Shown: one piece after another, positions 3,510-60,735 of the stretch | Layout of the letters: every line of letters starts with the position of its first letter | How positions within the stretch are numbered: the stretch's first letter is position 1 | DNA from: Eledone cirrhosa | Taxonomy: Eukaryota | Length of the DNA: 64,000 nt | Assembly (NCBI GenBank): GCA_964016885.1 | Contig: OZ024740.1 | Location: 367,722,001-367,786,000, forward strand | Reading direction: 5' to 3' | Translations under genes and position numbers: made by a program | The notes under the pieces: generated by a model | Told to the model about the DNA's origin: nothing | What the model saw: only the letters and a program-made list of their open reading frames with translations | Database searches by the model: none

Positions 3510-3731
3510 TAAAATAAAGTTAAATAAAAGTCAAATGATTAAAATTTAGCTTCGTTTATTACTGCTATATATATTTCAGTGACAGCCATCTTTGGCTGTG
3601 ACCTCTTCAGGCAGTTTGAATTAGTATTTCAAACTGCCTGAAGAGGTCACAGCCAAAGATGGCTGTCACTGAAATATATATACCAGTAATAAACGAAGCT
3701 CAATTTTAATCATTTGACTTTTATTTAACTT

Positions 3732-3738
<7 letters not shown>
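3510..3738. repeat. Palindrome (arms ~110 bp, 7-nt loop) of Penelope pLTR containing two hammerheads
   Basis: 3510-3620 is the reverse complement of 3628-3738. Flanked by (TA)n. Confidence 0.95.
3561..3615 (-). ncRNA. Minimal type I hammerhead ribozyme, intact core (mirror copy 3633-3687 on plus has one stem I mismatch)
   Basis: ACTGC-CTGAAGA-GGTCACAGCCA aaga TGGCTGTCACT-GAAA-TATATA-TA-GCAGT, then AATAAA. Confidence 0.88.
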
Positions 3739-22019: not shown

Positions 22020-22090
<71 letters not shown>

Positions 22091-22096
<6 letters not shown>

Positions 22097-22617
22097 GAGA
22101 AGAAAGAATACTGCGTGGTTGCACATGGGTTACATATGATAAAAATAGTCCTCCGTCAGTGATTTTTCAACCTTCATTGGTATTTCATCGCTTTAAAAAA
22201 TCATATACCTCCGGTTGGTTCGAGCAATAGCTAAACGGTAGGGTAGGAAGTGAGAAGGGGAGAAACAGCGAGTGAGTGAGTGGAAGTGCGAGGAAGAGGC
22301 CAGTCGAGAGAAAGTGTAACTGACAGAGGGGGCGAAAGAAGGTGAGAGAAACAGAGAGAGCGGGGAAGCAGTAAGAGAGAAACAGACAAACGCAGCTGAG
22401 GAAAATATATATAAAAAACATGAAAATAAAGAATACTGCGTGGTTGCACATGGGTTACATATGATAAAAATAGTCCTTCGTCAGTGATTTTCCAACCTTC
22501 ATTGGTATTTCATCGCTTTAAAAATCATATACCTCCGGTTGGTGCGAGCAATATCTAAATAAAGCTATTGGGACAAGTAAATCGCGTAAAGCGAGCGAGA
22601 CAGTAAACAACAGGGAG
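22091..22617 (-). repeat. ~1.6 tandem units (~325 bp) of a pLTR/retrozyme-like repeat with permuted hammerhead motifs at 22148-22218 and 22473-22542
   Basis: Direct repeat offset ~325 bp. Homologous to the 27.1-29.5 kb unit. The 3' end abuts (TA)n. Confidence 0.85.
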
Positions 22618-23029
22618 GATTGCACCTGAGCCTGTGTTTGTGCGTGTGTGCTTGCAACGATGTGCGTTGACATACACGCATATGTACTTTATGCCGAAAT
22701 AGCAACTGTAGTCCTTTGCATTTCCAGATTTTGATACTCAAGTTTTTGATGTTTTACACCCCACTTTCATCTCATTTGCTCTTAAAACGCACCACACGAT
22801 GATAGTATAAGAATTGTAATTCTATACACTTCTCGTTTCTGATACACAGGTTTTCTACTTCAGTTAATATTTTTCAAATGTTTCAAATGTTGATATTGGT
22901 TGTAAGACACACGCATTTTTTATTTTTTATTTTTTATTTTTTTATTTTTTTATTTGTTTGCCCCAAATCACCACGTGAAATGGAGGCAGGATATATGCCA
23001 ACCTACACACACAAATTCTTCTGAACATA

Positions 23030-23457: not shown

Positions 23458-24990
23458 ATTTCTTCGTGAATGATCTGAAACTCTATGCCAAGAACATGGA
23501 TGGGATAAAGAAATATCTTGACCTGGTTACAACATACTCATATATGGAGAGTTTGGCCAAGATATAGGAATGGAGTTTGGCCAAGATAAATGCACATATA
23601 TGCCTGTAAAGCGGGGAAAAACAACAATCCAATCTAGCCACATTTGTATCAATGGCCTAACTGTTTCACCAATATCTGACGGGGACTGCTACTGATGCCT
23701 GGGGATAGATGGGAACATATCCTATAATGGTACCTAATAAGGAACGCGTAACCAGGGACTACTATACACGATTAAGAAAGATATGGTCATCGGAACTCTC
23801 TGCGCAAAAATAAAAAGTGGCTCACAATGTGTTTGGAATACTCAATTGGAAGATAGACGAAATTCGAGCGATTGATGTTAGAACTCGAAAAATACTAAAC
23901 AACACCAGAAACTTCCACTTCAACAGTGTCATAGACCGGCTTTACTTGAAACATAAGCAGGGAGGCAGAGGCCTCACATCAATCCAGACAGCATTTGAAT
24001 GTCCCATCATATCCATCCGATAACATCTACGAACCTCATAGCGTAGGAGCCCGTCTCTCGAGCAAGTCTATCTGCATGAAACTGATAAGATCATGAGAGT
24101 TCGGAAGGAACTCCTCGAGAGGTATTCCCTGGGTGATAATCAAAAACTCACACCCAGGGAAGTTGCTCAGCAGTATCGCAGTGAATCTATACAGGACAAA
24201 CTGGATTCTTATCAACAACAAATCATGCATGGATATGTTGCCAGGAAGCTCCTATGAGGCATACTGTAGTGGCCAAAACATTGTACATTACAATCCGTAG
24301 AAAAAATATCCCCGATACTAAACACATTAAAAGCTACAGCAATGTGGAAGACATACGTATACATAATAGGAAAGAGTACTGGAAGAATGTTCCAGTAAAA
24401 AACCCAATAAAATGCAGGCATAATAGACCAGATATTATAATATGGGACAGGCAAAAGAAGGCATGCACAGTAGTGGAAGTTAGCTGGCCAGCAGATGCCA
24501 ATATAATATCAAATATTAGCGAAAACGAGAATATTTATGCAGAACTGATGAAAAATCTGCAGATACTCCACCCTGACAATACCTTCAGATGTATGCCTGT
24601 GATTATTTGGGCACTGGGATATGTTAGTAACTGCCTCAATACAAATCTTGAGAATCTAGGCTTCACAGGAACAGAAAGAACACAACTAGTTAGGAAATTA
24701 CAAGTACAATCCATTAATGGAACAGTAAAAATATGTAAAACGTTCCAAAAATGTTGCATGTAATACCTGCATATACACACGTATCGATACTAAGCATACA
24801 TGCACACGTACAACTCGAAACATACACATACATACATACAATAACATCCATATCTCCACATGCAGGCAGACATGCAGACATATCTGCCTAGTTGATGTTG
24901 TGTAAATTCCAATGAGAGAGTCTTGTGTCTGTTACAGACCGTCTTTCTCTCTACTGGCAAAACATTGTGAAATTATAAAACTAGAAGAAT
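23458..24990 (+). mobile_element. R4/Dong-type RLE non-LTR retrotransposon, 5'-truncated, disrupted, with an internal deletion
   Basis: FFVNDLKLYAKN, IDRLYLKHKQGGRGL and HNRPDIIIWDRQKKACTVVEVS (PD-D/E endonuclease). Ends at (CATA)n. Confidence 0.88.
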
Positions 24991-25001
24991 ATACATACAT
25001 A

Positions 25002-25145
25002 CGTCTCGACGGCTATTTCTGGACTCAGTCAAGAAATAGCCGTCGAAACGGCTTGAGCTCTGCCGTCGGAGTTAAACATTTTCCTATCACCCACTCTACT
25101 ACCCTAAGTATTGCGTACTCTGGTGCGCCATGGTCCATCTGGTTC
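25002..25145 (+). mobile_element. Short pLTR-like fragment with the 3' half of a hammerhead and a 5' fold-back hairpin
   Basis: Hairpin 25002-25050. GAAA-CGGC ttgagctct GCCG-TC at 25045-25067. Ends at (TA)n. Confidence 0.55.
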
Positions 25146-27116: not shown

Positions 27117-27140
27117 TTATATATATATATATATATATAT

Positions 27141-29461
27141 ATTCACCTAGCTTATGCTAACAGAATAACTATGAAGCTTGTTCCCTTCCTTCTACGGTTA
27201 GCTATCCTCTTTGTTGTTATCTTGTTTCACTCGCCTTACGCGTTTTAATTGTCCTAATAACTTAATTTAGTTATTATTGCACCGACGTGAGGTATATGAT
27301 TTTTAATGCAATGAAATATCTATGATCGTCGGCAAATCACTGATGAGGGACTTATTTTATTACATGTTATCCATGTGCAACCAGCAGTATTCTTCTCCCC
27401 ATTTTTTCACATATATTTACCTACTGCGATTCTGTTTTTTTCTCTCTCTCTCTCTCTCTCTTACTGCTCCCTCGCTCTCTCTGTTTCTCCTACTTTCTTT
27501 CGCCCCCTCTGTCATGTCAGTTAACTCTTCCTCACACTTCCACTCACTCACTCACTGTTTCTTCTCTTCTCACTTCACCCCGTTCGCGACGAAATCATTT
27601 TCTCTCTTTCTCACATTTGAATTCGCTCCTGAAAGGTCTTTTTTCTAAGCGCTCATATATTCACCTAGCTTATGCTACAGAATAACTATGAAGCTTGTTC
27701 CCTTCCTTCTACGGTTAGCTATCCTCTTTGTTGTTATCTTGTTTCACTCGCTTTACGCGTTTTAATTGTCCTAATAACTTAATTTAGTTATTATTGCACC
27801 GACGTGAGGTATATGATTTTTAATGCAATGAAATATCTATGATCGTCGGCAAATCACTGATGAGGGACTTATTTTATTACATGTTATCCATGTGCAACCA
27901 GCAGTATTCTTCTCCCCATTTTTCACATATATTTACCTACTGCGATTCTGTTTTTTTCTCTCTCTCTCTCTCTCTTACTGCTCCCTCGCTCTCTCTGTTT
28001 CTCCTACTTTCTTTCGCCCCCTCTGTTATGTCAGTTAACTCTTCCTCACACTTCCACTCACTCACTCACTGTTTCTCCTCTTCTCACTTCACCCCGTTCG
28101 CGACGAAATCATTTTCTCTCTTTCTCACATTTGAATTCGCTCCTGAAAGGTCTTTTTTCTAAGCGCTCATATATTCACCTAGCTTATGCTAACAGAATAC
28201 CTATGAAGCTTGTTCCCTTCCTTCTACGGTTAGCTATCCTCTTTGTTGTTATCTTGTTTCACTCGCTTTACGCGTTTTAATTGTCCTAATAACTTAATTT
28301 AGTTATTATTGCACCGACATGAGGTATATGATTTTTAATGCAATGAAATATCTATGATCGTCGGCAAATCACTGATGAGGGACTTATTTTATTACATGTT
28401 ATCCATGTGCAACCAGCAGTATTCTTCTCCCCATTTTTCACATATATTTACCTACTGCGATTCTGTTTTTTTCTCTCTCTCTCTCTTACTGCTCCCTCGC
28501 TCTCTCTGTTTCTCCTACTTTCTTTCGCCCCCTCTGTCATGTCAGTTAACTCTTCCTCACACTTCCACTCACTCACTCACTGTTTCTCCTCTTCTCACTT
28601 CACCTCGTTCGCGACGAAATCATTTTCTCTCTTTCTCACATTTGAATTCGCTCCTGAAAGGTCTTTTTTCTAAGCGCTCATATATTCACCTAGCTTATGC
28701 TAACAGAATAACTATGAAGCTTGTTCCCTTCCTTCTACGGTTAGCTATCCTCTTTGTTGTTATCTTGTTTCACTCGCTTTACGCGTTTTAATTGTCCTAA
28801 TAACTTAATTTAGTTATTATTGCACCGACGTGAGGTATATGATTTTTAATGCAATGAAATATCTATGATCGTCGGCAAATCACTGATGAGGACTTATTTT
28901 ATTACATGTTATCCATGTGCAACCAGCAGTATTCTTCTCCCCATTTTTTCACATATATTTACCTACTGCGATTCTGTTTTTTCTCTCTCTCTCTCTCTCT
29001 TACTGCTCCCTCGCTCTCTCTGTTTCTCCTACTTTCTTTCGCCCCCTCTGTCATGTCAGTTAACTCTTCCTCACACTTCCACTCACTCACTCACTGTTTC
29101 TCCTCTTCTCACTTCACCCCGTTCGCGACGAAATCATTTTCTCTCTTTCTCACATTTGAATTCGCTCCTGAAAGGTCTTTTTTCTAAGCGCTCATATATT
29201 CACCTAGCTTATGCTAACATAATAACTATGAAGCTTGTTCCCTTCCTTCTACGGTTAGCTATCCTCTTTGTTGTTATCTTGTTTCACTCGCTTTACGCGT
29301 TTTAATTGTCATAATAACTTAATTTAGTTATTATTGCACCGACGTGAGGTATATGATTTTTAATGCAATGAAATATCTATGATCGTCGGCAAATCACTGA
29401 TGAGGGACTTATTTTATTACATGTTATCCATGTGCAACCAGCAGTATTCTTCTCCCCATTT

Positions 29462-29465
<4 letters not shown>
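27141..29465 (+). repeat. Tandem array of ~4.5 x 511-517 bp units in (TA)n; each unit carries a permuted hammerhead/K-turn motif
   Basis: Motif starts at 27282, 27799, 28314, 28825 and 29339. Units are nearly identical apart from (CT)n length and a few SNPs. Confidence 0.95.
27282..27351 (+). ncRNA. Candidate non-circularly permuted hammerhead ribozyme with kink-turn (representative copy)
   Basis: CCGACG-TGA-GGTAT-A/TGATTT-ttaatgcaat-GAAA-TATC-TAT-GAT-CGTCGG-c-AAATCA-CTGATGA-GGGAC. Stems I and III and the K-turn pair and covary with the 22-kb copies. Confidence 0.65.
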
Positions 29466-29541
<76 letters not shown>

Positions 29542-39263: not shown

Positions 39264-39364
39264 CTGTATGTATGTATGTATGTATGTATGTATGTATGTA
39301 TGTATGTATGTATGTATGTATGTATGTATGTATGTATGTATGTATGGATGTATGTATGTACGTA

Positions 39365-40222
39365 TGTTATTGTGGTTTTATAATTTTACAAATGTTTGCC
39401 AATAGAGAGAGAGTCGGTTTCTAACATAGACACAAGACTGTCTCATTGGAATTTACACAGCATCAACTAGGTAGATATGTATGCATGTCTGCATGCATGT
39501 GTAGATATGGATGGTATTGTATGTGTGGATGTGTGTTTTGTGTTGTATGTGTGCATGTGTATATGCTTTGTATCTGTACATGTGTATATGCAGTTATTAG
39601 ATGCAGACATTTTGGGATGTTTTACATATTTGTACTGTTCCATTAATGGATTGTACTGTTAATTTCCTAACTAGTTGTGTTCTTTCTGTTCCTGTGAGGC
39701 CCAGCTTCTCAAGATTAGTATTGAAGCAGTTAGTAACATATCCCAGTGCCCCAATAATCACAGGCATAAATCTGAAGGTATAATCAGGATGGAGTCTCTG
39801 CAGATTTTTCATCAGTTCTGCATAAATATTTTCCTTTTCGCTAATCTTTGATATTATATCGGCATCTGGTGGACAGCTAACTTCCACTACAGTGCATGCC
39901 TTCTTTTCCCTGTCCCATATCATAATATCTGGTCTGACATGCTTGCATTTTATAGGGGTTTTTACTGGAAAATTCCACCAGTACTCTTTCATATTATGTA
40001 TATGTACGTCTTCCAAACTGCTGTAGCTTTTAATGTGTTTATTATCGGGGCTATCTTTTCTACGGATTGCATTGTACAGTGTTTTGGCTACTACAGCATG
40101 CCTCATATGCAGATAGTACTGCGATGATATGGGTGGCACATTCGATGTTAATTCTGCAGAGTCTGCACTTGTTATCAAATCAAGGTGTTTTGCCTGCATC
40201 TCTATCTCTTTTGTGAATCAGG
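39365..40222 (-). mobile_element. R4/Dong-type RLE LINE 3' fragment (same family as 23458-24990), flanked by (CATA)n
   Basis: ORF 39597-40199 is highly similar to 24254-24763 (RPDIMIWDREKKACTVVEVSCP). The 3'UTR is shared. Confidence 0.9.
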
Positions 40223-44999: not shown

Positions 45000-45442
45000 C
45001 TCCACATATGACGTATTATCTTCGTTTTTTTCGTTCATTGCCAGAGAACGTCTCTATGCACCACCTAAGAGAACATTAGTCTACGACCTCTTTTATACCA
45101 TAAACGTGGTTCTGTCTTTGCGCGTAATTGCTTTTCACCGCTCCTATTAATGACGTATTATATTCGTTTTTTCCCGTTCTTAGCCAGCGAACGTTTGCAC
45201 GAACCAAAGTATCGTCTTCCTGTCTTCCTCCGGTTGCAACGTTTTTTGAAATATCCAGTTCTGCGTTTACAGATTGACTTTGTTAGTTTCAGAAGATCCC
45301 GTTAAGGGTGAAAGCAACGATTCTTTGCTTAAACTTTGATCTGTTATTTTAATAAATATTTGCTCTACGGTTCTTATATATTTGATATATATTTATCCTT
45401 ATCGAGCCCTCTTTGGATTTTAGTCTTCACATTTATTATTAT

Positions 45443-45447
<5 letters not shown>
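45000..45447 (+). mobile_element. pLTR-like element with variant type I hammerhead (45285-45335); its 3' terminus recurs at 2600-2645, 46236-46297 and 52925-52985
   Basis: AGTTT-CAGAAGA-TCCC gttaa GGGT-GAAA-GCAA cgattct TTGC-TT-AAACT, then AATAAA. Terminus TCGAGCCCTCTTTGGATTTTAGTCTTCACATTTAT followed by (TA)n. Confidence 0.7.
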
Positions 45448-45478
<31 letters not shown>

Positions 45479-45481
<3 letters not shown>

Positions 45482-46115
45482 TCTTTTCTCTCGATTACTT
45501 GGTCTCGAACTTAAGTTCTATTATCGAGTGGTCTTGGATTTCTTACCTATAGTTGCTCGCACATTGCTCGGTTTGTGTTTTTTTCGCTGTGACCATTCTT
45601 CTCGCCACTTCTACCTTCCTATTTCGCCACTTTTTACTCTCCCCCTCTTTCTCCCCCCTTTTCTCCCTATCTACTCTTACCCCACTTTCTTCCTCTCTTT
45701 TTCTCCTTCTCACTGACCGTTTAGCAATTCTCTTCTCACTCACAACTGCGGCGATCGGACGTGTGATTTTTCTCTCGATTACTCGATCTCGAACTTAAGT
45801 TCTATTATCGAGTGGTCTTGGATTCCCTACCTATAGTTGCTCGAAAATTGCCCCGTTTGTGTTTTTTTCGCTGTTTTGTTACTGCTTGTCATTTCTTCCC
45901 GTTTGCTTTCCTTCCCTCCCTCCTTCGTTTTCCCAATAACTTATCCAGTTATTGACCCCATGTGGTGAAATGGTATCTTGTCTTTAAAGCGTAGAAATAT
46001 CCTAGATGCCAAGTAGAGAACTGATGAGGACCCCCCCCCCCCTGTTCTTGCTTTCTTCGTGTTCTCACTGCATTTTAAGTTACCTTAAAAGCAACTACAG
46101 AGCCATTTCTATTCT

Positions 46116-46118
<3 letters not shown>
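45479..46118 (+). repeat. Diverged relative of the permuted-hammerhead repeat (motif 45963-46031), with an internal ~283-bp-offset duplication
   Basis: GGTAT-C/TTGTCT-ttaaagcgta-GAAA-TATC-CTA-GAT-GCCA-agt-AGAGAA-CTGATGA-GGAC. Flanked by (TA)n. Confidence 0.65.
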
Positions 46119-46155
<37 letters not shown>

Positions 46156-46424
46156 ATATATATATATATATATAGATATATATATATATAGTTTAAGCAA
46201 AGAATCGCTGCTTTCACCCTTAACGGGATCTTCTGATATATATTTATCCTTATCGAGCCCTCTTTGGATTTTAGTCTTCACATTTATTATTATTACTATA
46301 TATATATATATATATATGATTATATATACCAGACCAGCCAACCTCTAAAAATCATAACGAGGAGCATATAAAAATGTGCCTTAAAAGGGGGAGAAATGGG
46401 GCAAAATGGAAAGATTTTACATAA

Positions 46425-46635
46425 TTGTTTCTACTTTAGGCACAATGCCAGCAATTACCCAGTGCATTACTGGTACTTTATTGTATCGACCCCGTAAGGA
46501 TGAAAGGCAAAGTCAACCTCGGCGGGATTTGAACTCAGATCGTAAAGGGACGTACGATCTGAGTTCAAATCACGCCGAAGTTGACTTTGCCTTTCATCCT
46601 TACGGGGTCGATAAAATAAGTACCCGTAATGCACT
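46425..46635 (-). mobile_element. 5'-truncated SINE with fold-back inverted duplication inside a 17-bp TSD
   Basis: GGAAAGATTTTACATAA flanks both sides. 46553-46635 is the reverse complement of part of 46460-46545. Confidence 0.88.
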
Positions 46636-47014
46636 GGAAAGATTTTACATAACGAAAGCTATACTGACTGGGAGACTTGACAGGTTTGACATACATATAT
46701 GGATACATAGAATATACATTTCTTATTGTCAAATACTATTTTGTATATGATTTTATATATGCTTAGTATCTGTACTCGTATATTGTATGAATTAATGATA
46801 ACGACACACATAATTGAAGAGTGAATTATGAGGACATTCTAATCCTAATGCTAATATAATTAAATTAGAGATTGTTCCCTGTAATGTACATAATTTATAT
46901 TTAGTTAGATATTATTTTTTTCACATGACTCCGATAGAAGATATAGATTTATATTTACAGAATGAGAACTCTTTCTGAAATTCTATTTCGGGATGTATTG
47001 TAGACCCGTTATTA

Positions 47015-50044: not shown

Positions 50045-51893
50045 GATGGGCTAATGAATCCGTGCCTGAGGACTGGAGAGATGCAGTAATGGTGGTCTTG
50101 TACAAGGGAAAGGGTAACAGGAATGATTGTGGGAACTACAGAGGTATATCATTGCTTTCTGTCGTGGGGAAAGTTTTATGTAGGGTGCTTCTGGACCGTC
50201 TGCTGACACACATTGCAGATTGTGTCCTTCCTGAAAGTCAATCTGGTTTTCGTGTTGGACGCGGCACTACTGATATGATCTTCTCAGCTAGACAGCTCCA
50301 GGAGAAGTGCATTGAACAGGGCTTGGATCTGTATCAGGTTTTTGTCGATCTGACAAAGGCTTTCGATACTGTCAACAGAGATGCATTATGGAAGGTTCTC
50401 CAGAAACTTGGTTGCCCTGATAAGTTCCTTGCTTTAGTTAGGTCTTTCCATGACGACATGAAGGCTTGGGTTAATGTCGGAGGTAACATGTCGGAGCCTA
50501 TCTCAGTAAAAAATGGAGTGAAACAGGGGGATATTCCAGCACCGACCCTGTTTGCCATATACTTTGCAATGGTTTTCTGTATTGCATTCAGGAATTGCGA
50601 GCATGGTGTTTACATCCGATATCGAACCTCAGGCAGCATATTTAACATCAGGCGCTTTGCTGCGAAGACAAAAGTATTTACATCAGTCATAAGAGACCTC
50701 TTGTATGCAGATGATTGCGATCTTGTAGCACACACAGAGAGTGATATGCAGCACATTTTGAATGTATTTTCTGACGCTTGCACTGCCCTGGGTTTGACTG
50801 TCAGTCTCAAGAAAACCGTCGTCATGTACCAACCTGCACCTGGTAGGCAGTACACTGAACCAAACATCTATGTGTATGGCAAACGACTTGGAGTGGTTGA
50901 TCAGTTTGTCTACCTGGGAAGCACTGTCAATCGATACGGCAACCTTGACAGTGAAATCTCACTTAGGATTAGGAAAGCAAGTGATGCTTTCGGAAAGCTA
51001 GAAAGGCGACTCTGGGGTCGGCGAGACATATGCAGGAGGACAAAGGTAAAGGTGTACAGGGCATGTGTACTCTCTTGTCTTCTTTATGCCTGCGAGACCT
51101 GGGTCACATATCGACGCCACCTTAAGCAATTGGAGCGTTTCCATCAGATGTGTCTCAGACGGATACATGGCGTTCGCTGGAGGGACCACATCAGTGATGT
51201 CGAGATTTTGGAAAGCTCTATGTGTGACAGTATAGAAGCTCTTGTGCTTAAGCAGCGACTCCGTTGGAGTGGTCACCTTGCCAGGATGAAGGATTCTAGA
51301 ATACCAAAACAACTCTTCTATGGAGAGTTGGTTAAAGGAAAACGACCGCCACATAAACCAAAAAAGAGGTATAAGGATTCCTTGAAGGCCTCTCTGAAAG
51401 ACGCTAACATCTCTGCTGATACATGGGAAAATATTGCTGCTGATCGTAATAAATGGAGAAAGACTGTATATGAGGGAAAAGTTGCCTTTGAGGCATCTCG
51501 AATCGCACACGAGAAAGTAAAGCGGGACGTGAGGAAGGGTATTGCTGTTGCACTTCCAGACGGCGAGGGTCCTCCTATGTTTCTGACATGCAGCGTCTGT
51601 GCGAGACTCTGCCTAAGCAAAGCTGGACTCGAAAGTCATCTTCGCAGTCATAAAGTAAGACCAGTGGTTGACTACCAGGCTGCTGTTGGAGATGCTACTC
51701 ATCATGCTTGCCAAACATGTGGTAGAGAATGTAAATCAGCAGGAGGACTCAAGCGACATGCAAAAGTACACGAACTCCAACCACAGCCGACTATTCCCAG
51801 TAAATGTTTTGGTTGCCGACTCTGTGCAAGACATTTTGGATCATTGGCTGGGCTAAAAAGCCACATTCGATCGCAGCACTGTTAGTTGCTATC

Positions 51894-52980: not shown

Positions 52981-53079
<99 letters not shown>

Positions 53080-53165
53080 GTAGGAGGTGAGTTTTATTGT
53101 AGTACAATAAAGCAATGCAGATATCGGATAAGAAGAACTCTACAGTTTGTGGGACTGGAGTATAC

Positions 53166-54249
53166 ATAATATATAAGAACAAAAGATGGTTAAAGGAGTT
53201 CCATGTATTTTATTATGCGCATTTCAAAAACAAATATCATCATGCAATAATATTTGTGTTTTCATCAGATAAAACAGGAGGACATGATATGAAGGCTAAA
53301 AAACACTTGTGGATAGTTCAGTTTTAAATCAACATATGAGAAGTAGTTTTAGATTGATGTGTGATATTGGGAAAAATATTTTATTTAGAGGGGGGGATGA
53401 AAAAAAGAGGAGGAGATGAGAGTGAAGGTGGGGAGGGAGGAGTATAGTGAGGAAGGATGAGATAGGAGGAGAGATGGGTGATAGAGAGAGAGAGATAGTT
53501 TTTATAACTGAGAAAGATATATTGTTTTACATAGAGAGGTTGAAAACCGTTGGAAGATAATGTATAAATTAAAAGAATTTGAAAATTAACGAAGAGAAAA
53601 AGAGAAAAATGTGTGCGAAGAAAGAGAAGGAGTTAATATGTATTGAGAATAATGAGTTAGATGATAGGGAGAAAGGATTAATGAATTGCGCGTGAATATT
53701 CTAACGTCAAAAAAAAAATGAATATGTTTACGAAGGATTTTTATAAGGTGATATAGAGTAAGAATGTGTTGTATTATGTAATAATTGATTCTATGTTCTC
53801 TTTCTTCGCACACATTTTTCTCTTTTTCTCTTCGTTAATTTTCAAATTCTTTTAATTTATACATTATCTTCCAACGGTTTTCAACCTCTCTATGTAAAAC
53901 AATATATCTTTCTCAGTTATAAAAACTATCTCTCTCTCTCTATCACCCATCTCTCCTCCTATCTCATCCTTCCTCACTATACTCCTCCCTCTCCACCTTC
54001 ACTCTCATCTCCTCCTCTTTTTTTCATCCCCCCCCTCTAAATAAAATATTTTTCCCAATATCACACATCAATCTACAACTACTTCTCATATGTTGATTTA
54101 AAACTGAACTATCCACCAGTGTTTTTTAGCCTTCATATCATGTCCTCCTATTTTATCTGATGAAAACACAAATATTATTGCATGATGATATTTGTTTTTG
54201 AAATGCGCATATTAAAATACATGGAAGTCCTTTAACCATCTTTTGTTCT

Positions 54250-54259
<10 letters not shown>
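53166..54259. repeat. Long inverted repeat: arms ~463 bp (53166-53628 / 53796-54259), 167-bp spacer, pLTR-like, between (TA)n tracts
   Basis: Arms are reverse complements with about six mismatches by eye. Confidence 0.97.
53208..53274 (-). ncRNA. Minimal type I hammerhead ribozyme, intact (mirror copy 54149-54219 on plus has one stem I mismatch)
   Basis: TTTTAT-CTGATGA-AAACACAAATATTATT gcat GATGATATTTGTTTTT-GAAA-TGCGCA-TA-ATAAAA. Confidence 0.9.
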
Positions 54260-54281
<22 letters not shown>

Positions 54282-54306
54282 TACATATATATATATATAT
54301 AGATAG

Positions 54307-54387
<81 letters not shown>

Positions 54388-56105
54388 TATAAAATATATT
54401 TATGGATGTATGTATGTAAAGATACAAATGCCTAACGTCAGATAGAAGTGCTTTCCAAGTTTTGTAAATTATACACATTTCCATGCAACCCAAATATGCC
54501 AAGTAGTGAAAGAAACTATCCGTTAACTGAAGCCATTCCTGTAAATATCAGAATAAACTTGTCCTTATAGTATATGTATATAGCCAATTAACTTGTTGAA
54601 TATATATACGTGCCTGGTGTTGAAACATGCTTGATGTTTCAGGAATATTCCATTGTTTTTGTTAATTTTTGGATTTTTTGTATATACTTAGATCTGCTCA
54701 GACTTTATTAATTCTCAACAGTTCATCCTTTTCATAAATTAATGGGAGATTTGATATTGAGAACATTCTATGGATAGTCACAATTAACTAAATGTTAAAC
54801 GTTTGCTCATCTAGAAAATTCATAATCATAAGAATTAAAATAGGATGAAAAGCTGGTTAACAAAATTATATTTGTCAGAAAGCCAATGCTCTTCATATAT
54901 ATTCAATGTACCTATTTTCATTAGAAGCAGGTATATAGCTGCTAACGTTTTAGGGTTAGCTGGTTAATGCATACATGGAAATCAGCTGGATGTTTTATAG
55001 TGAACAATCTTGTACTTATCGTGATGAAGAGGAATAACTATAAAGTTGTTTTACATGACAGTAACGAAATGCTGAAAAAAAAAGCTGAAACGCCAGTTTG
55101 TAGAAAATACCAGCATATATATTTTAACCTGAACTATTTCGTTTTAGTACCGTACTTAGAAACGAATCATTTGGTGTTTTGTGGGACATTGAAATTGTAA
55201 TATATTTAGTTTCTGTTTAACTGACTGTTTCTAACAGAACATTCAGAGGCATGATATAACTGTAAAAGTAACTAAAACATGTTTTATAAAACTGGGTTTT
55301 AATGAATATCTGATCTGGTCAAAATTCATATATATTGTTTATAGAAAATGTAAGAATACCAAACTCAGGTAAGTCTGTAACAATAGTCGATTGCTATGAA
55401 TGAAAAGTTCGAAAATCACATTATTTAAACTAAAGGTTGAAAAAAAAAGCGATCAGAAATCGCCGCCTCAAAGAATGCAACAACGTATCAGTCTAATTCC
55501 GCTCGAAGGCTCTAATCGTTTAGATAAATAACTTCTGACACACATTCCTTGAAGCTACGTGTGAGCATATTGGATGTAAAAACAAAAAAAAGACCCACCC
55601 CTACAATAAAAAAAAGAAGAAAAAACCTATCGAATATTGGTTGATATGGAATTCTTCTTAGAAAATATAGAAATCACAAACGCAGGAAATACGGAAAGAT
55701 CAGACAATTGCTCGAAATAATATTCTAGAAAACCGGATAAAATGCCCCAAGGATCGGGAACATTGGCAGTTGCCGCTAAGAAATATCGAATTCCATATTC
55801 CTCGAAAAACGGACTAATATATAGAATATTATGTATTTACTTGCACTATATCTGGTTATAGCCTTTTGTATACCAGCCTATAATGAAACTGTGCACAAAA
55901 TAAAATAAAATATAAATACAACATAAATTCAAAATACAGTAAGCTTATCTGTTGGGTGAACAAGTCAGGTAACTTAGAATGCGAATCTGTAACGAAAACA
56001 AGGCTTATTCATTATTGTCCTCTCTCTGTCTCTGTATCTTCCTTTCTTCCTTTCCTTCCATTTTTATTTGTTTCTTTATATATTTCTCTTTCGCTCGGTC
56101 TACCT

Positions 56106-57498: not shown

Positions 57499-59464
57499 AA
57501 CACATACACACATATATATACGTGTGTATGCATGTGTGTGTCTGTCTGTGTGTGTGTATATATATATATTTAATCTATTAGAATAAGGAACACCTTTCCT
57601 TTCATACATATTATAATGAACACACGGCTGTATTCCAGTATAATATTGAAAAAAAAATGTTTTTCCTATTCCATTATTATTTTCTATACTTTGTTTGAAA
57701 CACTAGCTTTCTTAAATCCACGTATCTCCTAAAGTTTCGTCGCCCTCAGTCCTCTATCTTAGGAATCAGCATGGTTACGCTTCTGATGCATTGGTCAAAT
57801 CTTGGCTTCGTTATTTCTTGCCTGTAAAATGTAGGAGACGCTGGAAGGTTGATTCGCGAATTAATCTATATTATCAAGTATTAAAAAGCATTTTATTTTT
57901 CTTACTGTTATTCCTTTCGTGAAATTCAGTTTACAAAGTTTTATAAATAATATAGAAATATTAGTTTATATATTTCTACATACAATTATATTTTTGATTA
58001 AAATAAGTTTATATGATTATTTAAAATCACCTTATATTGGCTTTTGCAGTCATTGGAAAGTTTTCAGAAAGTACATGAACCAAAGTTCTTATCAAACACC
58101 TGTCAAGGCATATTAATAATTATTAATTGATTTCCCGAGCGTATTTTCTATGAAGACTTTCTGACACTTGTTTTCATTATTCTTCGAACTTACAAGTTTC
58201 TATTCACAGTATAGAGACCGAATGTACCAGAATGTTCATCTGTTTATGAAAGTGTTCATTATACGCATGTGCTTATATAATAGAAACACTATTATCCTGT
58301 TCCTCATATCACGTAGAGAATGTGCTATTCCTATCGATCCGAATGACGTTCACGAGTTATCTGATTGTTGTTGAAGTTGAAGTACATCACATAATATTCT
58401 TGGAAAACAGTTTGTATTAACAAATCGTCTTCTATCTCTTCAAGCACTATATTATCAGTCTGTCTTTCTCTTTAATGTAAATTTGCCAGAACGAGCTGGA
58501 AATAAACTTCTGAATGTATATTTATAAATTACGATTTAGTGACCTCAAATTGAATTACTGTATATTCGGGTAAGGAAGAAAATTATAGTTTTATCATTCA
58601 ACGTCCATCTTTTAGCCTCCTATAACTTGATAGTATGGAAATAATCCCTGTGTAATTACTTTTATAAAGCATGTAGTTTTCGATTATACAAATTACTTTA
58701 ATTTAACATATATCAGCTGTCTATACTTAACTGCATGTTAATTGAATGTTAACTGTATAATTTATAGATGTTCTTATTATCACCTCAATATCCATGTCTC
58801 CATGTAAAGTAACCATATTGACTTATATTAATAGAACTAATTCTGGTTCAAATTACACGCGGAGTAATATTCTAACTTGAAAAAAACGAATCGTATTTAA
58901 TGGAAGCATTCAGCACCGAACCTTGTCAGTATTACATGTTGCACTTGAACTGCAAACAAATAAACCATACGACTCACAGCTGATATCATACGAAATTTAG
59001 AATCGTGTCTCATTGACGTATCACAGCCTAGACTAACTGTAGCACTCTTCAACTTCAACTTCAATATTTGAACTGTCCAATCGATACCATTCTGACTAAA
59101 GATACCACTCCAATTAGATGACAGTCGATCAACATGAAATATTTTTCTGAGAATTCTTAATTACTTCGTCTAAACTCCCAGTACACGAATATAAATGAAT
59201 ATCTCTTTGTTAATGATATAGTTGAATATAGCTTCTTGCAGACACCATTACTGGTAGTTTTAAACACAAATATAGATAGAATGTTTCGTGCTCAGAATAT
59301 TGATGTTTGATTAACTAAGATATTTTCCTCCGTCAATGACTTCCTAATAAACAAAGTTCTAGATTTCGCTCATGCAATTTACATTTACGAGGAGTTGGTT
59401 GGACTAATAATTTATATATTCAATTATTAATGATTTGTATCCATTTTAAAAACATCATGCATAT

Positions 59465-60156
59465 CCTGTCTCACTCGCTTTACGCGTTTTAATTGTCCTA
59501 ATAACTTAATTTAGTTATTATTGCACCGACGTGAGGTATATGATTTTTAATGCAATGAAATATCTATGATCGTCGGCAAATCACTGATGAGGGACTTATT
59601 TTATTACATGTTATCCATGTGCTACCAGCAGTATTTTTCTCCCCATTTTATCACCTAAACTGCGATTCTGTTTTTTTCTCTCTCTCTCTCTTACTGCTCC
59701 CCCATTCTCTCTGTTTCTCCTACTTTCTTTCGCCCCCTCTGTCATGTCAGTTAACTCTTCCTCACACTTCCACTCACTCACTCACTGTTTCTCCTCTCCT
59801 CACTTCACCCCGTTCGCAGCGAAAGCAATTTCTCTCTTTCTTACATTGCATTCGTTCGGGAAAGGTCTTTTTTCTAAGCGCTCATATATTCACCTAGCTT
59901 ACGCTAACAGAATAACTATGAAGCTTGTTTCCTTCCTCTACAGTTAGCTCTACTCTTTGTTGTTTTCCTGTCTCACTCACTTTACGCGTTTTAATTGTCC
60001 TAATAACTTAATTTAGTTATTATTGCACCGACGTGAGGTATATGATTTTTAATGCAATGAAATATCTATGATCGTCGGCAAATCACTGATGAGGGACTTA
60101 TTTCATTACATGTTATCCATGTGCTACCAGCAGTATTTTTCTCCCCATTTTATCAC
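59465..60156 (+). repeat. ~1.4 units (502-bp period) of the same permuted-hammerhead repeat; motifs at 59526-59595 and 60028-60097
   Basis: High identity to the 27141-29465 unit. The same 3' end abuts (TA)n. Confidence 0.93.
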
Positions 60157-60735
60157 ATATATATATATATATTTATATATATATATATATATATATACAT
60201 TTATGTTTATCTGCCAATTATTTCGAATACAATATTGGTGCTTTCCAGGTACACAATTAAGATATGCCACTTCGCATATAGAAATACAAAATTCCAAGCA
60301 ATGTTGAGTATATGATACATTGCTGTCAATAAATTATAGAATATTATTTAATTACATTGAATAACGGGAGAAGTAATATTTTTTATAAAGATATTCATGA
60401 CATTGATAATTATTAAAAAAAAAAGTATAATGAAATTAATTATAAATGTAATCACGCGCATACGTATATAGACTATACATTTACACACACACACACACAC
60501 ACACTCAAAATATGTCAACATGAATGGACCTGTTATTTTTATCTGAAGGCATTTTTACCAATAATTCCCGCCTGTCCCCTCAATCTATCTTAATTCTCAT
60601 TCTTTCCTTTGGTGAAGGATTAGAGTCCGAATGGTTAGGCCCTCTTCTTGCTATATCAAGCGTTAACCTAATATATCCCTTCTATATTCTGTACCGATTG
60701 TGTAGTTAATTCTGTTTACCTTTTACATACCTACA

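Follow-up and report, generated by a model that had tools for sequence, protein, structure and literature searches.

What stands in for stem II in a hammerhead whose core blocks are out of order? The question arises in the genome of Eledone cirrhosa, where a stretch of 64,000 nucleotides (the window) holds hammerhead core blocks at 45972-46027 in the non-circular order S-G-C. No circular permutation yields this order, which Eckert et al. (PMC10085705) call "type SGC". Non-circular hammerhead permutations are known, in the relevant portion of that paper, from metatranscriptomes, from metagenomes and from one doubtful bacterial case.

The repeat and its hammerhead core

The motif lies in a non-coding, pyrimidine-rich insertion (subfamily C), which occupies 45479..46117 (+) between two (TA)n runs and contains an internal 107-nt duplication (45484-45590 and 45768-45874). 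The element is multi-copy, appearing at 80% likeness on 1,476, 1,302 and 1,399 contigs in three runs. One contig per run jumps back from 46030 to 45713; the copy in the window is solo. Two sister subfamilies carry the same motif nearby. Subfamily A forms a tandem array of 511-517-nt units at 27137..29466 (+), with five motif copies (31-32 of 32 pairs), (TA)n on both sides and mutual differences between units of 2-4 substitutions plus 3-8 gap positions. A second A array at 59462..60165 (+) has two intact motifs, and subfamily B (22090..22623, minus strand) has one near-intact and one splint-less copy. A and C are about 64% identical over some 100 nt around the motif. The 3' ends of all four insertions lie at (TA)n, 62, 62, 64 and 90 nt beyond the core.

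A sequence-free descriptor of the S-G-C structure matched 10 loci in the window (seven A copies in the two arrays, two B copies on the minus strand and one C copy), against a mean of 0.05 and a maximum of 1 in 100 dinucleotide shuffles; this descriptor was composed after the copies had been seen, and the 10 loci represent only three independent subfamilies. No Pfam-matching coding frame was found in any of the window's insertions, no open reading frame or motif of the GIY-YIG plus reverse transcriptase kind in or near the C insertion, and no Naiad peptide motif or coding remnant in a six-frame search of the window. A tRNA-like head was not found on the repeat either. The Rfam scan returned no ribozyme family among 120 matches up to E 1, only microsatellite-driven miRNA and snoRNA noise, and folds 3' of the core were insignificant or borderline (z -1.9, -0.65 and +1.0).

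The window is rich in microsatellites and contains LINE-type reverse transcriptases. A 607-aa reverse transcriptase frame at 50062-51885 has C2H2 zinc fingers at its end, and an Atlas search with the nearby reverse transcriptase matched only eukaryotic families. Two broken LINE 3' ends, at 24253-25002 (+) and 39354-40107 (-), are 88% identical; their peptide, without a Pfam match, resembles a restriction-like endonuclease domain. The flanks of the C insertion (45289-45477 and 46190-46328) contain a duplication of 47 nt in inverted orientation and another of 95 nt in direct orientation, resembling the rearranged ends of Penelope-like insertions. A 63-nt direct repeat also flanks the insertion; it is present elsewhere in the window too, and we do not claim it as a target duplication. 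Just 3' of the C motif, at 46418-46637, stands an inverted pair of an abundant, SINE-like repeat of 135-190 nt, to which about ten more sites across the window show related matches.

The hammerhead core is complete in the C copy, with CUGANGA at 46021-27, GAAA at 45994-97, the A15.1-U16.1 pair (45976/45997) and, between stems III and I, AUC as NUH cleavage triplet (45975-77). Block S (45972..45977) comprises the 3' strand of stem III (45972-45976, with U16.1) and C17 at 45977, after which cleavage is predicted by analogy with ordinary hammerheads. Block G (45994..46001) joins GAAA to the 5' strand of stem III (5/5 pairs), and block C (46015..46027) joins the 5' strand of stem I (46015-46020) to the CUGAUGA core. 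An alternative cleavage register at GUA, two bases upstream, would turn the third pair of stem III into a G.A mismatch and was rejected. An earlier note, made by a model from the letters alone, had described the permuted order with GAAA, CTGATGA, GGAC and an AUC triplet, and all of these are where it saw them. Its stem I is equally accurate, TTgTCT/AGAGAA pairing at 5 of 6 positions (45978-45983/46015-46020) with a single G.G at 45980/46018. The motif does not begin at 45963, where the note's span starts, but 32 nt earlier, at 45931.

Pairings in place of stem II

A direct stem II, in which the 3' flank of CUGANGA would pair with the 5' flank of GAAA, is absent; 2 of 6 pairs can form in A and C and 3 of 6 in B, non-contiguous from the core, and the 10.1-11.1 pair of a canonical stem II is missing in the C copy (G opposite A). 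The flanks of the core pair separately with an upstream splint, making helix a (45931-33/46028-30) and helix b (45955-58/45989-92). The strands of the motif, all on the plus strand, run in the order a, hairpin P, b, c, bend, S, linker, b', G, bend, c', C and a'. Splint segment a (TCC, 45931..45933) pairs with the GGA of a' (46028..46030, within GGAC at 46028-46031) over 3 bp in C and 4 bp in A and B. Hairpin P (45934..45954) has 8 bp and leaves no spare base between a and b; its z score is -6.5, and 0 of 200 shuffles were equally stable. Splint segment b (45955..45958) pairs with GCGT of b' (45989..45992), with 3/4 pairs in the C copy and 4/4 with the majority G at 45957. The splint, hairpin P as fourth arm and the end of the core are predicted to make a four-way junction that replaces stem II, and G46028 would occupy the 10.1 position, paired by the splint.

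The remaining strands would bend stem III back towards stem I. Helix c (45960..45965 with c' at 46008..46013) is a distal extension of stem III, holding 2/6 pairs in the C copy and 6/6 with majority letters. Between the two is a K-turn-like bend whose bulged strand (46002..46007) has a 3-nt bulge, G1b, A2b and 3b, and whose other strand (45966..45971) has 3n, G2n, A1n and three further nucleotides that are absent in A and B. The 3-nt bulge followed by tandem G.A / A.G pairs is present in the C copy (46002-06 with 45967-68); the continuity of the non-bulged strand in a standard K-turn fails there, at 45969-71, and is kept in A and B. These are the extra bases for which the earlier note had called the K-turn imperfect. 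The stretch 45966-45977 also resembles the S strand of Octopus Naiads with the cleavage register shifted by two bases, and it may be, as a speculation, that the three extra bases are a relic of such a shift. The 3' strand of stem I (45978..45983), with three compensatory pairs relative to A and B, is followed by the unpaired TTAA(A) linker (45984..45988), which leads to helix b and is kept in A, B and C and, by eye, in Acropora Naiads.

We scored 32 pairs, in helices a, P, b, c, III and I, and counted them by coordinates because MAFFT misregisters b and c in the C copy. Five A copies keep 32/32 and two 31/32; the better B copy keeps 31/32, the truncated one 24/32 and the C copy 25/32. Compensatory changes across A, B and C affect 10 of the 32 pairs (two in b, five in c and three in I), or 11 with the outer pair of P, which is T-A in A and C-G in B and C. 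Helix a is invariant among the window copies and varies only across Naiad records read by eye. The sequences upstream of A and B passed the splint test, against 89 and 130 of 20,000 random window pieces; the C copy failed it by one C.C mismatch. Plain MFE folds of A and B form helix a and hairpin P unaided, and that of the C copy differs from the hammerhead fold. We are highly confident that the secondary structure of the splinted motif is correct. The second B copy (22134-22260, minus strand) lacks segment a of the splint along with half of P, and its A9 is changed to G; this natural splint-less form is probably dead. What remains of its P arm exactly complements the 5' arm of the first B copy.

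These pairings bear on what the earlier note had proposed for the linker and the post-core GGAC, namely that the two, conserved yet not complementary, contact each other by non-Watson-Crick means and so substitute for stem II. That they stand in for stem II holds good. The mutual contact is not supported, each having a Watson-Crick partner upstream: GCGT pairs with 45955-58, with two compensatory pairs and a mismatch repaired in the family majority, and GGA pairs with TCC at 45931-33. Only the TTAA(A) linker stays single-stranded and could be free for tertiary contacts.

The family-majority letters come, unphased, from contigs at 80% likeness in three runs of one sample in one study. Of the 40 differences listed, 11 lie between 45925 and 46018. 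Six affect positions for which pairing is predicted (45957, 45960, 45963, 46008, 46011 and 46018; shares 0.91-0.98), and five concern loops or sequence beyond the motif. Each of those six restores a Watson-Crick pair, and together they take the count from 25/32 to 31/32, with a chance of 0.0014 (Watson-Crick only) or 0.022 (with G.U) that all six would do so. The C.C mismatch of helix b, whose pairing was proposed before these letters were seen, is G-C in 95-97% of depth. Position 46018 reads C in 96-97% of depth, and the G.G mismatch at 45980/46018 is peculiar to the C copy. The earlier note had made its reading depend on stems I and III pairing across the subfamily, and with majority letters they do, at 6/6 and 5/5.

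The C copy is thus decayed and its subfamily intact in pairing. Since it failed the splint test and keeps 2/6 pairs in helix c, this copy is probably impaired, and full activity is doubtful. The imperfect K-turn seems a trait of the subfamily and not decay; no deletion of the three extra bases occurs among the differences listed. Loose contig ends at 45955 and 45974, low in agreement, suggest that a minority form may lack these bases.

The fold in Naiads and among known hammerheads

Naiads are Penelope-like elements described as lacking canonical hammerheads and often targeting (TA)n, and some hold core words that fit no descriptor and are flagged 'HHR_half_core' or 'HHR_core' in the portion of Craig et al. 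(2021, PMC8557442) that concerns them. We searched the core words in their consensus file (CTGATGA at places 1-55 of 62, CTGACGA at 23/23, CTGAAGA at 1-30 of 43 and CTGAGGA at 25/25); the remaining CTGATGA and CTGAAGA places fall after the Naiad file by part number, and words split across line ends are missed. Read by eye and not computed, the same a-P-b-c-S-b'-G-c'-C-a' fold is present in the 3' region of at least 9 of the 54 Naiad consensus records. These are Naiad_Obim and Naiad_Ovul of Octopus, Amil, Aacu and Anas of Acropora, 3_Chem of Clytia, one Morbakka record, Plae of an acanthocephalan and 4_Dst of an ostracod; Esco and Bfor fit in part. By the same reading of the 54 records, the motif was recognised in none from bivalves or nematodes, and the nematode records show a C-before-G order. 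Still other records (PMC8557442 supplement, parts 9, 17 and 18) have different structured 3' motifs, some with the core words in G-S-C order.

In the records with the fold, the helices measure about 3-8 (a), 4-8 (P), 4-6 (b), 5-9 (c), 5-13 (III) and 4-6 bp (I), and the sequence differs in every helix. Because each record has its own helix sequence, helix a covaries at this depth. The links from b to c and from c' to I have 1-2 nt and that from I to b' has 1-7 nt. The closest match is with the two Octopus records, which share the 5-bp stem III and the 3-nt K-turn. Their bend is a standard K-turn, that of Acropora and Plae a plain bulge, and that of Morbakka and Clytia carries an insert or hairpin on the S strand; the extra S-strand bases of the C copy therefore have parallels. 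Measured against the kink-turn as such (PMC5061560), A, B, C and the Octopus Naiads have the 3-nt bulge and then tandem G.A, 3b.3n being U.U in A and A.G in B and C having three extra nucleotides on the non-bulged strand, whereas the other Naiads use the plain bulge, insert or hairpin. Judging from these sequences, the splinted S-G-C fold is likely the overlooked self-cutting RNA of Naiads. The portion of Craig et al. (PMC8557442) on Naiads describes no permuted fold for them.

The two features by which we judged dependence on Naiads, a 3' end at (TA)n and a shared 3' RNA motif (compared by eye), are both present in the window's repeats, and we consider it probable that Naiads mobilise them. 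The two kinds of element share the (TA)n target and the fold in the 3' region, read by eye; Naiads are 3.4-4.4 kb long and encode EN-RT (Craig et al., 2021, PMC8557442), whereas the window repeat is non-coding and about 0.5-0.6 kb long. Subfamily A consists of non-coding tandem units that each carry a hammerhead, as retrozymes do. Non-coding tandem layout with (TA)n ends is that of non-autonomous retrozyme-like repeats. Cervera and de la Pena are said to have worked on the non-LTR retrozymes of animals. Such retrozymes likewise have non-coding tandem units with one hammerhead each, as monomers and multimers, and their mobilisation by Penelope-like elements has been proposed (bioRxiv 10.64898/2026.07.22.740005). 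They are defined, in the part of that preprint on their delimitation, by type I (C-G-S) hammerheads, unlike the S-G-C motif here; its pipeline would therefore miss the S-G-C form.

Two other hammerhead groups invite comparison. HRIMA-1 of type SGC shares with the window motif the S-G-C order, an intact core and a short linker from stem I to the stem II side, but possesses a genuine stem II together with a distinct stem I-II helix, and is described, where Eckert et al. (2023, PMC10085705) treat its structure, without a multi-stem core junction. The window motif differs in its splint-built four-way junction, its bent and extended stem III and its place in an animal genome. The HRIMA-1 stem I-II helix is absent here: 5' of stem I the strand is paired with c, and 3' of the core it is paired with the splint. 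Minimal type I hammerheads of Penelope-like elements share the weak or missing stem II, but have canonical order, a tiny palindromic stem III and no splint. Two such loci, canonical in order, lie in the window (3510-3738 and 52986-54424), in inverted repeats as in Penelope-like element ends, with cores at 3610 and 53268 (minus strand) mirrored at 3638 and 54157. Because a direct stem II is missing, we file the motif, which is hammerhead-like with SGC order, under neither the canonical families nor HRIMA-1.

The relevant portion of Eckert et al. (PMC10085705) reports type SGC from metatranscriptomes and none from genomes of known organisms, although RefSeq was searched; patterns that require stem II would miss a splinted form. 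Our own pattern matched 12 viral and 7 metagenome sequences, of which 0/19 have the post-core GGAC and 1/19 (L008) the 5/6 stem I, and we take these as chance. In a literature search that covered few subscription papers, no permuted or splinted hammerhead was reported in Naiads, octopus or other animals.

Mechanism, alternatives and significance

Taken together, the locus is probably a decayed SGC hammerhead core with a splint-built stem II, the likely self-cleaving 3' ribozyme of a non-autonomous, Naiad-mobilised repeat. In the proposed mechanism, the splint a-P-b would pair with the strand 3' of CUGAUGA (helix a) and with the strand 5' of GAAA (helix b), and the tandem G.A pairs of the core would stack on the a/P/b junction, on helix a or b, and not on a continuous stem II. 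Hammerheads with a one-pair stem II are active, in the pertinent part of PMC3088659, and a splinted junction is therefore plausible, if unproven. SGC order requires the strand leaving stem III to travel to the distal end of stem I, a point far away in the crystal structure (PMC10085705, section on connectivity), and K-turns bend a duplex to about 50 degrees (PMC5061560, in part). Stem III would here be bent at the K-turn-like loop, and helix c would run back to the distal ends of stem I and helix b. There c, stem I and helix b would form a distal three-way junction with linkers of 1, 1 and 5 nt. This would tether stems I and II next to each other, a role that loop-loop contacts have in ordinary hammerheads. 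The bend of subfamily A (3b.3n U.U) may, by analogy with box C/D, need a K-turn-binding protein; for those of B (A.G) and of the C majority (3b = C), ions alone could suffice for folding. Folding of K-turns in ions is governed by the 3b.3n rule (PMC4382518, in part). Type-SGC hammerheads cleave in vitro (PMC10085705, in part), and we think it likely, from the sequences compared, that the motif family self-cleaves. If tandem transcripts are cut in this way, unit-length RNA would be set free for a Naiad reverse transcriptase to copy into (TA)n.

The same fold might instead be a hammerhead-derived 3' recognition signal that does not cleave, for the Naiad reverse transcriptase or a K-turn-binding protein. 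Such a signal would suit the loss of both the continuous stem II and the canonical 10.1-11.1 pair and the constant distance to the 3' end, and 8/9 Xenopus retrozyme elements tested did not cleave (bioRxiv 2026.07.22.740005, in the portion on cleavage). We regard it as unlikely, because CUGANGA, GAAA, A15.1-U16.1 and an NUH triplet (AUA, AUC, GUA or UUC) remain constant while all helices vary, the pattern expected of selection on catalysis.

A cleaving form could also span units or molecules, with block C and a' meeting the splint, S and G of the next unit (order C-S-G), or with two RNAs swapping strands as in Penelope dimers. Subfamily A does lie in tandem arrays, and Penelope-like hammerheads have reportedly been cited as cleaving as dimers. 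Yet about 100 nt suffice for helices a and I to close locally, linker lengths are kept, solo copies and single Naiad 3' ends contain all partners, and stem III is not palindromic. This makes a between-unit form quite improbable, and its local geometry would be identical anyway.

Very little speaks for the linker and GGAC as a non-Watson-Crick tertiary substitute for stem II beside incidental upstream complementarity. It is true that helix a has few pairs and does not vary among the window copies and that TTAA is conserved without a partner, but helix b covaries (2/4 pairs) and is repaired in the family majority, and the GGAC and GCG letters vary in other Naiad records where their splint pairing does not. 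That short words of a low-complexity repeat fell into this order by chance is ruled out by covariation and next to incredible given the shuffled descriptor counts, the pair counts and the recurrence in four animal phyla, although CTGATGA alone is expected about ten times per window.

Given the splinted, self-cleaving hammerhead as the preferred reading, we find it fairly likely that an active hammerhead of non-circular permutation, with a splint four-way junction, a fold-back at a K-turn or bulge and a three-junction cage, occurs in Naiads from four or more animal phyla and in the retrozyme-like elements that parasitise them. If true, eukaryotic genomes would gain their first covarying non-circular RNA permutation, and Naiads could no longer be regarded as lacking hammerheads. 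The 'HHR_core' and 'HHR_half_core' flags, left without explanation for Naiads (PMC8557442, in the part cited above), would be accounted for, and the link between retrozymes and Penelope-like elements would extend to Naiads. In structural terms, stem II would prove able to do without a continuous helix, and a K-turn would emerge as a solution to the SGC connectivity problem noted by Eckert et al. (PMC10085705, same section). A whole class would have been missed by descriptor searches demanding stem II. The spread of such a form through animal genomes, probably at very high copy number, would mean that the permutation is old and widespread.
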